Source: Formosa sp. Hel1_33_131
GTDB taxonomy: Bacteria > Bacteroidota > Bacteroidia > Flavobacteriales > Flavobacteriaceae
Direction of reading: 5' to 3'
Assembly: GCF_001735745.1 (NCBI RefSeq)
Contig: NZ_CP017260.1
Span: 1,770,001 to 1,802,000, forward strand
DNA length: 32,000 bases
The notes under the pieces were generated by a model. The model ran no database searches. It had not been told where the DNA came from and worked only from the letters and a program-made list of their open reading frames with translations. Shown here piece by piece: positions 23,467-28,191 of this stretch. The position numbers and the translations under genes were made by a program. The first letter of the stretch is position 1. Each line of letters begins with the position of its first letter.

Positions 23467-25986
23467 TTAAAACAGACCTAAATCGTCTGCGTTTGCTTCT
23501 GTTTCGTGTACTACTTCTGTGTTTTCTTCGATTTCGATTATTCCAGTTAATGTGTCTTGAGCATCATCAAAATCATTTGCACTAAATATTTTTTTATACT
23601 TGGTTACGTGTTTATAAAATACTGGCCATCTAATATGCCAATCACTAGGAAACACCACCTCATTATTCACACTTGCACTATTGCTATATATTCTAGCCTC
23701 CTTATTATTCGATTGATGAAACCAAAATATATTTACTCCTTTGTTTACAAGCTTCTCTAAATTTCTTGCAAATCCTCTACCGCCGCCATTACTTTCAATA
23801 TTGACTTTGTTGACATTATTTCGGTTTAACATTTTAGCAGTCAAAGGCTCTGTGATTTCCATTCCTTTTTGAGTGTACAATACATCAATCACATACTTGT
23901 GAGGATCTGTACTAGCCAATGGAACACCATACACAATGCTACATAGATAATCTTTGCCTGAATCTGCTGTATCAGTATAATTCTTAATAATTTTCAAGTC
24001 TGGTAAATCCTTGTAAGTTTTAAAATTATTACTATAAAGAAGCCCCTCTTTATTTTGCGGATTACCTTGATACAAACAATCAAACTTATCAGGGTCTTTT
24101 ACTCTTGAGCTTTCATGTTTTTTCTTGGAATGTTTATCTGGCCATAGCGCATCGCCTTCCTTTCTTGGGTCAAACTCTGATAGTTTACCTTCTTTTAAGG
24201 CTTGAAAATTTATAAGCAAAAACTTATCATCTAAATTCTTAATAACTTCTTCTAAGTCTTCGGTACCATCATAAACAACTACCAACCCTAATTCAATTAG
24301 TTTCGCAATAACATCTTGGTCACTCCAACGTGTAAATGTGATAAGCTGTTGAGAATCATTATGCAATCTTGAATCTGCTACTGTTAAATACCAATCCCAT
24401 ACAGACCTTTGAGTTACTGGCGAATTAGCATCTTTCCAGCCTTTGTATAGATCATCAAGAATTAATACATCAACAGTATCTCCAGTTAATGGACCATCTA
24501 CACCTACAAACTTCATAGAACCATCAGAATTGATAGATTCCCTTTCTATGTTGGTGTTAGATTTTGCGCCTGTATATCCTCTTTCAGGGTATTTGGTGTT
24601 AGGAAATATATCTTTATACTCCTTTTCACGCATTATGGTCATTATCTCTCTACCAAACTTCTGTGCCTTTGTTGCTGCATAACTAACTACTGCTATTTTA
24701 TCATCAGGTCTATATCCTGCTAAAAATGACGGTAATCTTCGAGTACTACCTTCACTATTATGAGTAGGAATTAAATTCCTACCCACCAAATAAACACCAC
24801 CTTCAACAGTAATACATTTGCCTTTTTTAGGTTTCACTTTTTCAATAGAAATAATACCTCGTTTTCTTTTTAAAGGATTTTTTAATATTATTTTCTTTCT
24901 GTCAATTGCCGTAGGTATTTCAATGTCTGGATTAAAAGATAATTGATAAACTTTATTTCTTCCAATAATTCCACTAGTGCTAACAATTGGTTCAAACTCG
25001 CATATTGTAGTTCTAAACCCTAGACTTACACAAATATCTTTCACATCATATATTAGCCTTTTGTTTATATTTGAAAACGTTACCCTTCCATTGTTTAGGT
25101 AAACGTATCCATCACTATCAATCAATCCCGCTAACAATTCTAGTCTATCATTTACTGTTGATAGTTTGTATTCTAAAGGAATGTGCTTAATATCTCCTTT
25201 TGGATGCGCAAAATTGATTTTTTTAAAAGATTGAAATGTATCTCCAAAAAATCTACTAGTTATTACACCTGTATCTTTATGAACTGAAAACGATGTTTTC
25301 TTATAGCCTAAAGAAATAATTTTATCAATTGATTTATAATCATCAAAATGATGTGTTATTGTTGGTGCCGAAACTTGACCATCTCCAAGCCATAGCCCTA
25401 AAAAATAGGGGTGTATTGTCAATTCCTTTTTATCAAATAAGACCAAATAATTTGAATCTACTTGAAATCTACATCTCTTTTTGAAAGTTCCTGAAAAATA
25501 TTTTTGCGAAAATAAATATTGTGTTTCGCATTTTATTTCTCTTCCTTTAGATCTATCAAAAACAACCCATTCATGTTGGGCATGACATTGTATTTTTTGC
25601 CCATCTGTAAAGGTTATTAAAAATTCACAATCTGGTTTATCGCTCTTGTTTAAAACATTTAACACTTTGGTTGGTTTTCCAAATCTATCAAAAACAAAAT
25701 CACCTCTTTTTAGATTTCCGTGCTGTTTAAATCCTTTTGTTGTTAAAACCAAGACAGAGTCAATAATTTTTTTCCCGTGTTGCGGTGGCATTGTTACTAT
25801 AAGGTTTTTTATTTCCTTATGTGCAAACCGATTTAATATGTCATAGAACGTTTTATGAAACCACTCGGGCTTAAACTTTTTAAATGTTGTTTGAGTGAAC
25901 TTGAATAAATCATCTTTACTATTATCTACATCTTCCTGGTATAGCAGTTGTTCAAGTTCATATATTTCTTCATTGCTCAGGCTCAT
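23467..25986 (-). CDS. terL: terminase large subunit, interrupted by an in-frame intein
   Basis: Extein sequence IVTMPPQHGK|SEGSTRRLPSF restores a P-loop (GKS). VDVLILDD is Walker B-like. The C-terminal half looks nuclease-like. 839 aa in total, of which 338 aa are intein. Confidence 0.85.
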   Translation of the reverse strand: MSLSNEEIYELEQLLYQEDVDNSKDDLFKFTQTTFKKFKPEWFHKTFYDILNRFAHKEIKNLIVTMPPQHGKKIIDSVLVLTTKGFKQHGNLKRGDFVFDRFGKPTKVLNVLNKSDKPDCEFLITFTDGQKIQCHAQHEWVVFDRSKGREIKCETQYLFSQKYFSGTFKKRCRFQVDSNYLVLFDKKELTIHPYFLGLWLGDGQVSAPTITHHFDDYKSIDKIISLGYKKTSFSVHKDTGVITSRFFGDTFQSFKKINFAHPKGDIKHIPLEYKLSTVNDRLELLAGLIDSDGYVYLNNGRVTFSNINKRLIYDVKDICVSLGFRTTICEFEPIVSTSGIIGRNKVYQLSFNPDIEIPTAIDRKKIILKNPLKRKRGIISIEKVKPKKGKCITVEGGVYLVGRNLIPTHNSEGSTRRLPSFLAGYRPDDKIAVVSYAATKAQKFGREIMTIMREKEYKDIFPNTKYPERGYTGAKSNTNIERESINSDGSMKFVGVDGPLTGDTVDVLILDDLYKGWKDANSPVTQRSVWDWYLTVADSRLHNDSQQLITFTRWSDQDVIAKLIELGLVVVYDGTEDLEEVIKNLDDKFLLINFQALKEGKLSEFDPRKEGDALWPDKHSKKKHESSRVKDPDKFDCLYQGNPQNKEGLLYSNNFKTYKDLPDLKIIKNYTDTADSGKDYLCSIVYGVPLASTDPHKYVIDVLYTQKGMEITEPLTAKMLNRNNVNKVNIESNGGGRGFARNLEKLVNKGVNIFWFHQSNNKEARIYSNSASVNNEVVFPSDWHIRWPVFYKHVTKYKKIFSANDFDDAQDTLTGIIEIEENTEVVHETEANADDLGLF
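24757..25770 (-). mobile_element. intein with LAGLIDADG homing endonuclease (class-3-type WCT signature)
   Basis: Residues K73..N410. Block A is KIIDSVLVLTTKG and block B is DGQKIQCHAQHEWVV. The LAGLIDADG motifs are YFLGLWLGDGQV and LLAGLIDSDGYVYL. Block F is KGKCITVEGGVYLVG and block G is NLIPTHN, followed by the +1 Ser. Confidence 0.8.
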
Positions 25987-26383
25987 TTGCTTTTTCTAAT
26001 AACTCTTTTAATCTTTTAGCTCTTTCCTCTTTTGTCATATCAGGAAACTGCGGTAGCTCAACTTCTAAAGATTGTTTAGGTTTGCCCTCAATTCTGTCTA
26101 AGACGATGTTAATCGCTCTTAAATCTCCATTCATAGCTTTTGACAATAAAGTAGTAGCCACAACCTCATTCAAAGTAGTTTCGCTTTCAATTTTACCTTT
26201 CTTGGTTTTTGTTTCACCACCTTTGGTAACTTTGATTTCATACTCCACGCTTTTAGCTTCGCCAAACTCTCTTAAAAATTCAGATATAGATTTGCCTTTC
26301 TTACCTCTGTTTTTAGGCTGATTGGTTGAGCTAAAACGAGTTGCTTTACCATCTTCTGCTAAATTTGGATTACCTTTTCCCAT
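25970..26383 (-). CDS. terS: terminase small subunit candidate
   Basis: 137-aa ORF that overlaps the terL start by 17 nt. The basic N-terminus (GKGNPNL...STNQPKNRGKKGK) resembles small-terminase N-termini. Assignment is mostly by position. Confidence 0.55.
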   Translation of the reverse strand: MGKGNPNLAEDGKATRFSSTNQPKNRGKKGKSISEFLREFGEAKSVEYEIKVTKGGETKTKKGKIESETTLNEVVATTLLSKAMNGDLRAINIVLDRIEGKPKQSLEVELPQFPDMTKEERAKRLKELLEKANEPEQ

Positions 26384-26438
26384 TGCCGATATTTACCGAT
26401 TTTACGGCTTACATCAGAATACTAAAATGTAGAGTGTT

Positions 26439-26654
26439 CTATTTATCGTCAGATTCGATAAGACCTTCAGCAATATCAATTATGTTTTCTAGCTCATCTT
26501 CTTTTGCTTTGAGCTCAACATATTGTTGCTTTTGGTTAGGAGAAGCTGCACTTTTGTTTACCAGGATTTCTATATCCTTGCGCTTTTCCTTATGACGGGA
26601 CAATCTACTTTTCAGTACTTCTAACAAAGCCATGATTTTATTTTTGTATTTCAT
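26439..26654 (-). CDS. hypothetical coiled-coil protein
   Basis: 71-aa charged helical ORF between the modification operon and terS. Confidence 0.4.
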   Translation of the reverse strand: MKYKNKIMALLEVLKSRLSRHKEKRKDIEILVNKSAASPNQKQQYVELKAKEDELENIIDIAEGLIESDDK

Positions 26655-26695
26655 CCCTATATTTGTAGATATGCCACGAATATAGGAATTTGTTG

Positions 26696-27499
26696 TTAAT
26701 TCAATCTTTTAAACTCTCGTTCCTTTTTCTTCTTTCTAATACGATCTGTTTCTTCATTTAAGGAATCGCACTTCCACATCTGTTCCATGGAATAATAGAC
26801 AACTGTATATCTATATCCTTTGGGATGTGTTTTCTTTATAGGTGTTACACCATGTAATATTTCTTGACCATTGAATATTACAAGTGTATCATCTGCTATT
26901 TCTAATTTGATATCATATTCTGGAATGGATAGACGACCACCTTTTATGCCTTTCTTAAAGCAAACCATATTTGATAACACGCCTTTAAAGTTTCCTCTAT
27001 CGTGATGGTATTTTAGTGGATTGTCTTTATTTACGATTCCAGAGGTAAATACGCTGTTTTCGATTTTCCATTCTTCTTTGATACGCTCTTTGATAATCGC
27101 CTTATGCTTTTCGTAAGTTTCTGGAAAGTAATCGATGTAGATTTGCTCTAGGTCCTTTACAAAATTGGTAATGATGTAATGCTGTTTAGGAAATTCAGTT
27201 GCCATAAGTGCTGCATGACAGAAGTCTGCTAGAAGTACTCTACGAGGCATATATCCAAATACAGTTGAATGACTTACTAATCCTGCTGTTCTTTCATCCT
27301 TATTATATTTTACAGTATTTACAGCCCAACGTAGGGCAGATGTATCTACTTTGGTTTTACTATAATAAATTATTGGTTCGCCATTGTCTGTTATGATACA
27401 ATCTTCGTCTATAAGCATTGTACAGTCTTCTTCTAAAGCTGACCTACGCTTGTAGTCTTTTAAGTTGATTTCTCTTTTATGTGCCTCTATTGTTTTCAT
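26696..27499 (-). CDS. 2-oxoglutarate/Fe(II)-dependent dioxygenase, TET/JBP-like candidate
   Basis: The HxD...H triad and a distal Arg are present: FTSGIVNKDNPLKYHHDRGNF, LVIFNGQEILHGVTPI, GYRYTVVYYS. The gene overlaps the glycosyltransferase gene by 4 nt. Confidence 0.6.
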   Translation of the reverse strand: MKTIEAHKREINLKDYKRRSALEEDCTMLIDEDCIITDNGEPIIYYSKTKVDTSALRWAVNTVKYNKDERTAGLVSHSTVFGYMPRRVLLADFCHAALMATEFPKQHYIITNFVKDLEQIYIDYFPETYEKHKAIIKERIKEEWKIENSVFTSGIVNKDNPLKYHHDRGNFKGVLSNMVCFKKGIKGGRLSIPEYDIKLEIADDTLVIFNGQEILHGVTPIKKTHPKGYRYTVVYYSMEQMWKCDSLNEETDRIRKKKKEREFKRLN

Positions 27500-28191
27500 A
27501 GGAACTTATACCAATCTCTTTTTAGTAAAATTTCATTCTCTCGTTTAGGGTTTAAGGCTAAAGCGCCATTCCATTTTTTTAGTAAGTAGTTAACTGTTTC
27601 CTTTTCCAACTCATCATTTCTATAGGCTACTGCACCACCTTTATTTGAATAATGTTTAAAATCACAAATGATGTAATTATGCTTTGCTGTTCTACCATAC
27701 TTTTTTAAATACTGCAGAGTGAAATCGTAATCTTCCTTTAGTCTTAAATTATTATCATATCGAATTCCAGTGTTAGGCTTTGTCATTGTAAAATCGCCAA
27801 TAATAAACCCTGATGTGATTGTGTTTTTTTGATAGAACTTATTGAATACTGGACCTATTCCTGTGAGCTCCAATTCTGATGTAGAAAACCATTTGTAGAT
27901 GTAATCAATAACATCATGTATGTTGCCTTCTTGGCTTTTTATAAAACACTTTCCGCAGTCATCTGACAGCTGTAGTGTTATCTTGTTTTGCTCATCACCT
28001 AGTTGTAATGCTTTATTTCGAGAATCAATTAGACTACCACCTTCAATAACATTGATAAAACCTTGTTTTTTATAAGCTTCTTTTTCTCCTGTACCTACAA
28101 TGAAAGTCCAATCTTTGTTATAAGAATTTGGTATTTTATTAGCCCTACCAGAACTAATTACAGTTATCAGTATGTTATTTTCCTGCTTCAT
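27496..28191 (-). CDS. GT-A fold glycosyltransferase candidate
   Basis: N-terminal beta-strand ILITVISSGRANK, then GGSLIDSRNKALQLGDEQNKITLQLSDDC. This follows the family-2 pattern (G..ARN.g...a.....f.DDD) and includes a DxD-like SDD. Confidence 0.55.
   Translation of the reverse strand: MKQENNILITVISSGRANKIPNSYNKDWTFIVGTGEKEAYKKQGFINVIEGGSLIDSRNKALQLGDEQNKITLQLSDDCGKCFIKSQEGNIHDVIDYIYKWFSTSELELTGIGPVFNKFYQKNTITSGFIIGDFTMTKPNTGIRYDNNLRLKEDYDFTLQYLKKYGRTAKHNYIICDFKHYSNKGGAVAYRNDELEKETVNYLLKKWNGALALNPKRENEILLKRDWYKFL

Follow-up and report, generated by a model that had tools for sequence, protein, structure and literature searches.

A predicted class 3 intein with a LAGLIDADG endonuclease domain in the terminase P-loop of a phage module of Formosa sp. 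Hel1_33_131

The interrupted terminase gene and its empty counterparts

The DNA considered here is a stretch of 32,000 nucleotides from Formosa sp. Hel1_33_131 (contig NZ_CP017260.1, positions 1,770,001 to 1,802,000), referred to below as the window, in whose coordinates all positions are given. On its minus strand, as for all the features described here, lies a gene consisting of one uninterrupted frame (23467..25986) for an 839-amino acid precursor of a phage terminase large subunit (TerL), in which an insert of 338 amino acids (TerL residues 73–410; 24757..25770), beginning with Lys and ending with His-Asn, separates Lys72 of the Walker A motif from Ser411. We argue below that the insert is very probably a mobile, full-length class 3 intein, carried in terL by a phage of the Flavobacteriia or of related Bacteroidota.

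The N-extein (residues 1–72; 25771..25986) runs to the first half of Walker A (MPPQHGK, 25771–25791), its last residues being IVTMPPQHGK, and the C-extein (residues 411–839; 23470..24756) opens with SEGSTRRLPSF, the first residue of which (Ser411, 24754–24756) is at once the Walker A Ser and the predicted +1 nucleophile of the intein. As a terminase large subunit, the protein matches PHROG 38 (E 5e-76) and TIGR01630 (69 bits, above the cut-off of 41.65); the Pfam family Terminase-T7_RNaseH-like covers residues 672–769, and PF22530 scored 25.3 bits, slightly below its cut-off of 27. A Walker B motif (VDVLILDD, 24451–24474) and a C-terminal RNase H-like nuclease domain are present in the C-extein, and splicing is predicted to restore the Walker A sequence GK/S (here and below, a slash marks a splice junction or the equivalent point in an uninterrupted sequence).

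The limits of the insert can be read from alleles that lack it. A metagenomic relative, the intein-less contig L005, aligns at 96.8% to positions 26947..25770 of the window, stops there and picks up again at 24754, so that 1014 bp are cleanly inserted in the window between GGA AAA and TCT GAA (the empty site in L005 reads CCACCGCAACACGGAAAATCTGAAGGTAGCACTCGAAG). The TerL from this contig (P0003) has the same flanks as the window over about 200 residues, with IVTMPPQHGK followed directly by SEGSTRRLPSFLAGYRPDDK, and both it and L005 match the N-extein exactly up to Lys72; a second contig, L006, is also an empty allele. The best database homologues (P0001 and P0002), again intein-free, are 87% and 86% identical to the Formosa protein, read PPQHGKSEGSTRR across the junction and are each 501 amino acids long, which is the exact spliced length predicted for TerL. 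The junction in the intein-free homologues is GK/SEGS, and the insertion boundaries are fixed without recourse to motif reading.

The original prediction, made from the sequence by itself, had placed a 338-amino acid insert between the P-loop Lys and Ser, with GK[ST] regenerated when the flanks are joined, and this is borne out by the 1014-bp gap and the 501-amino acid homologues; the residues and coordinates that it gave (the open reading frame, the junctions, K73, W140, C391, T408, N410 and S411) are correct to the base. It had proposed a comparison with intein-free TerL homologues as a check, and had foreseen the objection that a wrongly placed N-terminal boundary might hide a Cys or Ser. 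The comparison confirms the insertion point, and the objection fails on the DNA alignment with the empty allele: there is no Cys, Ser or Thr at the N-terminal junction, and the first intein residue stays Lys whichever of the adjacent Lys codons is assigned to the extein. The junction itself (25765..25773, GGG AAA AAA ATT) is encoded by a run of seven A, a type of homopolymer at which slippage or sequencing error occurs easily; here the reading frame is unbroken.

Parts, fold and class of the intein

The intein opens with KIIDSVLVLTTKGF, its residue 1 being K73 (25768–25770), and closes with LIPTHN. An N-terminal Hint lobe with blocks A and B (25459..25770, limits approximate) and a C-terminal Hint lobe with blocks F and G (24757..24876) enclose a LAGLIDADG homing endonuclease domain (24877..25458, limits approximate). 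Block B (QCHAQHEWVV, 25561–25590) has His138 at position B:10 and Trp140 at B:12 (25567–25569), and the lobe that contains it was aligned with the AQHQW of 6bs8 and the AAHQW of 6rix, the solved structures of the Msm DnaB-1 and MchDnaB-1 inteins, respectively. Block F (KGKCITVEGGVYLVG, 24781–24825) has Cys391 at F:4 (24814–24816), within KGKCITV, and block G (PTHN) supplies Thr408 at G:5, His409 and Asn410 (24757–24765); the counterpart of this lobe in 6bs8 reads vRCVEVDN..YLAG..VPTHN.

The endonuclease domain was delimited by Pfam matches and by alignment to the motifs of PI-SceI, the yeast VMA1 intein. Its first LAGLIDADG motif (YFLGLWLGDGQ, residues 194–204; 25375–25407) and its second (LELLAGLIDSDGY, residues 282–294; 25105–25143) contain LGLWLGDG and LAGLIDSDG, which align with LGLWIGDG and LAGLIDSDG of PI-SceI; each keeps its acidic residue, as a two-motif LAGLIDADG endonuclease should, and the earlier claim that both motifs are intact therefore stands, within a domain like that of PI-SceI. 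A conserved Lys in DIKHIP (25177–25194) is aligned with Lys301 of PI-SceI, which we take to be catalytic in that enzyme. Pfam recognised the endonuclease part of the insert only, through LAGLIDADG_3 (PF14528; E 1e-9, with 38.6 bits for a cut-off of 22.5) and Hom_end (E 6e-6).

An AlphaFold2 (AF2) model of the intein, built on 36 relatives, has a predicted local distance difference test score (pLDDT) of 92.6 and a predicted template modelling score (pTM) of 0.91. When this model was compared with solved structures by Foldseek, PI-SceI came first (E 1e-19; query TM-score, TMq, 0.73), followed by other endonuclease-bearing inteins, and the Hint part alone found gp41-1, MchDnaB-1 and the Mycobacterium smegmatis class 3 DnaB intein. 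With the endonuclease taken out, the splicing domain can be aligned along its whole length with MchDnaB-1 (6rix) and with Msm DnaB-1 (6bs8; E 3e-5), the latter pairing AQHEW with AQHQW, gKCITVEG..VYLVG with vRCVEVDNpeHLYLAG, and PTHN with PTHN, so that His B:10, Trp B:12, Cys F:4, Thr G:5, the terminal His-Asn and Ser+1 are all in register. At the other end, the register K1...T10..G13 fits the Cys1...T10..G13 of gp41-1.

Which class of intein is this? Class 3 inteins need no Cys, Ser or Thr at position 1 (typically the site of a non-nucleophilic residue) and have a Trp two residues after the block B His, a Cys at F:4, a Thr at G:5 followed by His-Asn, and a C-extein that starts with Ser or Thr (rarely Cys), all on a Hint fold. 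Here, residue 1 is Lys73, at a boundary set by the empty allele; H138-E-W140 is aligned with the HQW of 6bs8 and 6rix; Cys391 in GKCITV is paired with vRCVEV of 6bs8; T408-H409-N410 ends a PTHN identical to that of both structures; Ser411 opens the C-extein; and the fold is that of the AF2 model and its Foldseek matches. The original prediction of a Trp-Cys-Thr (WCT) class 3-type intein with Lys1 is upheld by a signature in register with Msm DnaB-1 and MchDnaB-1, and assignment to class 3 is supported by signature, homology and modelled fold, the mechanism of splicing being one that we infer. Class 1 would require Cys, Ser or Thr at position 1, and with flanks equal to the empty allele there is no other boundary that could provide it in place of Lys73; class 2 (the KlbA type, from archaea) would require Ala1 and Cys+1 with no WCT, and the present intein has Lys1, Ser+1 and WCT in a phage TerL.

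Three points weigh against this reading. There was no match of the insert to any intein splicing-domain (Hint) model in Pfam or NCBIfam scans; since these models miss the insert, motifs together with pairwise and profile-free homology are what place it among the inteins. The nearest intein in the databases is only 59% identical, so the activity of close relatives cannot be transferred to it directly. Finally, the splicing activity, the Cys391 intermediate and the endonuclease activity are attributed to it by analogy.

Splicing, homing and competing explanations

How might an intein splice that has no nucleophile at its first residue? The class 3 prototype is the MP-Be DnaB intein of mycobacteriophage Bethlehem (Tori et al., 2010; PMC2807308), and the class 3 pathway has been shown experimentally for Msm DnaB-1 (PMC5222942). 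By homology with these two, TerL would be translated as the 839-amino acid precursor, with the intein splitting the Walker A loop (GK/S) and ATP binding impaired. Cys391, aided by His138 and Trp140, would then attack the Lys72-Lys73 peptide bond to give a branched intermediate with a block F thioester; the N-extein would be transferred to the Ser411 hydroxyl; Asn410 would cyclise, releasing the 338-amino acid intein; and an O-to-N shift would create the Lys72-Ser411 bond of an active 501-amino acid TerL whose GKS P-loop is whole again. The precursor, with its P-loop split, is predicted to be inactive and packaging to depend on splicing, an argument already made for actinophage TerL inteins by Kelley et al. 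(2016; PMC5050341).

The endonuclease most likely serves homing, cutting intein-less terL at the P-loop-coding sequence during co-infection, after which repair would copy the intein in. The immediate surroundings of the site may hold a trace of such an event. In the 60 bp around it, the window and L005 differ only by silent mismatches, GGA to GGG, TCT to AGT (Ser+1) and AGC to AGT in the direction from L005 to the window (window 24745..24756 and 25771..25776 against L005 2469..2488), and the adjoining 60-bp blocks are 100% identical. The Ser+1 codon is AGY in all three intein-bearing Bacteroidota alleles examined, being AGC in Bacteroides phage B124-14 and Porphyromonas phage005b, and TCT in both empty ones. 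This silent cluster may be a co-conversion tract or may confer site immunity after homing, three intein-bearing and two empty alleles being too few for proof.

Endonuclease decay following fixation is the usual course of the intein life cycle, and it is accordingly conceivable that the Formosa intein splices actively but has a non-functional endonuclease, and is now a vertically inherited passenger rather than a mobile element; the differences at the site in the nearest empty allele (GGA/TCT/AGC in place of GGG/AGT/AGT) could be counted in favour of this. We nevertheless consider it rather unlikely, as this intein retains both LAGLIDADG motifs, with their acidic residues, and the conserved Lys, all of them invariant among relatives, the endonuclease domain is modelled at high confidence, and the existence of intein-plus and intein-minus alleles in near-identical phages, with sharp insertion bounds, suggests a recent gain or loss.

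Much less credible is the idea of a decayed, non-splicing remnant, which would make the terL allele, and perhaps the phage, dead. There is a precedent in the WDT pseudo-intein of Arthrobacter FB24 (Arth_1007), a dead class 3-like intein (PMC3196547), and the closest intein to the Formosa one is, as noted, rather distant. However, no catalytic position has been lost, not even Cys F:4, where the dead Arthrobacter intein has Asp; the frame runs open over 839 codons; the exteins, in which every motif is retained, share 87% identity with intein-free TerLs; and the phage genes around terL are intact, in synteny with L005. We therefore regard decay as highly improbable. It is more improbable still that splicing starts with Ser411 attacking the N-terminal amide directly, as in KlbA-like class 2 inteins, with Cys391 merely structural: an N-terminal nucleophile is indeed absent, as in class 2, but that class is an archaeal KlbA group with Ala1/Cys+1 and no WCT (PMC2807308), all class 3 inteins tested needed Cys F:4 and could not initiate splicing from Ser/Thr+1, or even from a natural Cys+1 (PMC5222942), and Cys F:4 is invariant over relatives of 30–59% identity.

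The surroundings of the intein's host gene are those of an ordinary, intact tailed-phage packaging and head module. A portal gene (SPP1-type) lies directly downstream of terL, a major head protein gene follows in the same module, and a small DUF5681-like open reading frame lies upstream. The GC content is 32%, and the closest intein-free TerLs are from Flavobacteriia such as Joostella, Tenacibaculum and Lutibacter; a megablast search with 12 kb of the window found no match in the phage collection.

Two further differences from L005 were seen in this region. The terL gene is a mosaic (window 23467..24756 against L005 2477..3746), with DNA identity of at least 95% over the first c. 540 extein nucleotides, a fall to 62–75% over extein nucleotides 900–1320, and a return to about 91% in the genes for portal and head, which suggests, from the pattern of identity, recombination within terL. 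Further upstream, about 1.1 kb (26948..28035, covering parts of two genes, the open reading frames 26696..27499 and 27496..28191) is missing from the otherwise 94–97% identical L005. One of the two genes matches phrog_6059, labelled queuine tRNA-ribosyltransferase (E 9e-42), and the other phrog_842, labelled beta-glucosyl-HMC-alpha-glucosyltransferase (E 8e-9), so that the stretch looks like a DNA-modification cassette between a ParB-like gene and the small open reading frame upstream of terL; a similarly named glucosyltransferase occupies the same position in Porphyromonas phage005b.

The wider family and known systems

An exhaustive HMMER search with the intein alone yielded 418 cluster representatives at E<=1e-30 (best 5e-124), a homology far beyond chance. 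Among the top 150 of these, 139 have a recognisable ...GK/X junction, and in this set residue 1 is L in 63, Q in 37, E in 16, K in 12, A in seven, N in three and C in one. WCT is complete in 133 of the 139 (the others being mostly truncated fragments), and the +1 residue is Ser in 128 and Thr in seven. Residue 1 drifts across the family (L, Q, E, K, A), presumably because it would have no chemical role, and Lys1, with 12 occurrences among the 139, is a routine variant and not a special feature; the nearest intein of all (P0241), at 59% identity, likewise has Lys at residue 1.

Conservation was assessed on an alignment of 36 sequences of 30–57% identity. The invariant splicing-domain columns (in intein numbering) are T10, G13, L20, D24, G31, H66, W68, C319, G330, H337 and N338; conservation is at least 90% at T336 and lacking at position 1, and in the endonuclease D130, D218/D220 and K195 are invariant or nearly so. 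In the weaker matches, where what is shared is mostly the endonuclease and residue 1 is Cys, both the Trp and the block F Cys are missing, so the published covariation that defines class 3 (PMC2807308) is reproduced. One TerL homologue (P0102, 1176 amino acids) contains two inteins: one is the P-loop WCT intein, with Gln1, and the second, of about 330 amino acids, starts with Cys (AHDDA/CFAAGTKI...), ends VLVSN/CDTLTG and lies within the conserved C-terminal HDDAxD nuclease motif. This second element resembles a class 1 intein, in another position of TerL.

How new is all this? The Formosa intein belongs, as an unexceptional member, to a large family already known, whose mechanism class, architecture, host protein and site were set out in publications from 2010 to 2025. 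Inteins with WCT but no N-terminal nucleophile were already reported from phage terminase large subunits, mostly in ATPase P-loops, by Tori et al. (2010; PMC2807308). Kelley et al. (2016; PMC5050341) found that TerL inteins splice and that their endonucleases cut intein-less alleles, and the actinophage survey of a 2025 preprint (10.1101/2025.01.02.630785) counted 287 class 3 inteins, most of which have canonical LAGLIDADG endonucleases and nearly all of which reside in TerL or Cas4; both works contain many LAGLIDADG-bearing class 3 inteins of TerL. The unusualness that the original prediction had implied for a LAGLIDADG-bearing class 3 intein in a terminase P-loop does not survive these reports, nor does its suggestion of a compact candidate for protein engineering, 338 amino acids with an endonuclease comparing poorly with the 130–150 amino acids of mini-inteins. 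What is modestly new is a sequence at most 59% identical to anything in the searched databases, from a Bacteroidota-phage clade that appears to be unmentioned in the searchable literature (searches on an intein in B124-14 or in Bacteroides phage terminases found nothing relevant).

The bearing on intein biology is therefore small, and the practical value modest: the family is common in Bacteroidota-phage terminases and is overlooked by standard Hint-domain models, and for that reason its TerL genes are annotated without an intein or misnamed 'exonuclease' or 'HNH endonuclease'. The records of B124-14 and phage005b say 'terminase large subunit' with no mention of an intein (B124-14 ORF043c is a 'putative phage terminase large subunit'); the copy of Gordonia phage Verity gp2 in RefSeq is an 'exonuclease', and gp210 of Mycobacterium phage Sauce is annotated as 'exonuclease' or 'HNH endonuclease'. 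Missed inteins matter for terL-based phylogenies and gene-length filters, and the two near-identical phages, one with the intein and one without, offer a ready substrate for a homing experiment. A bolder proposal would see a large unannotated clade of endonuclease-bearing class 3 inteins in Bacteroidota-phage TerL P-loops (including those of the human-gut marker B124-14 and of Porphyromonas gingivalis phages), in which the variable residue 1 (in Formosa a Lys beside that of the P-loop) tunes the rate or conditionality of splicing and packaging is gated post-translationally; redox-sensitive splicing, as proposed for Msm DnaB-1, would be an analogue of such gating, but we think the proposal as a whole improbable.

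Among known systems, the first comparison is with the class 3 prototype. MP-Be DnaB, of 341 amino acids against 338 here, also has an embedded LAGLIDADG endonuclease, and its H65/W67/C320/T339/N341 lie at almost the same positions as H66/W68/C319/T336/N338; the comparison was made through published residue numbers (PMC2807308), its published flanks VSQDQ and TKNTF not having been found within 30–46 kb of the Bethlehem genome (AY500153). Both inteins have a non-nucleophilic first residue (Pro1 and Lys1, respectively) and Ser/Thr at +1, and both interrupt a phage ATPase, a DnaB-like helicase of an actinophage in the one case and TerL of a Bacteroidota phage in the other. Of the inteins with solved structures, Msm DnaB-1 and MchDnaB-1 (PMC5222942, PMC6195587, PMC7664689) match the splicing domain best in sequence, H, W, C, T, H and N being in register, and they are likewise inserted after a P-loop GK (N-extein 'SVGK'), but they are bacterial DnaB mini-inteins without an endonuclease, at c. 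20–25% identity. PI-SceI, the best structural match to the whole molecule, has the same layout of Hint domain and two-motif LAGLIDADG endonuclease, but it is a eukaryotic class 1 intein (Cys1) with an extra DNA-recognition region, and is only about 16% identical.

The closest parallels are in other phage terminases. A Bixzunavirus gp210-type protein is a more distant relative of the intein (c. 32%). The gp2 proteins of Gordonia phages Verity and APunk (the latter a class 3 representative in the 2025 survey; 10.1101/2025.01.02.630785) share architecture, TerL host and P-loop site (GK/X...THN/S), with 35–36% identity over the whole intein; they differ in TerL lineage, host phylum and first residue (Leu1 against Lys1), and some of the actinophage TerL inteins have been shown to splice and to cleave intein-less alleles (PMC5050341; 10.1101/2025.01.02.630785). 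Closest among annotated phage records are Bacteroides phage B124-14 (HE608841) and Porphyromonas phage005b (PP754928), in which inteins 44% identical to that of Formosa occupy the same site in the same TerL family, with WCT and Ser+1 as here, and with Glu1 (B124-14) or Gln1 (phage005b) in place of Lys1.

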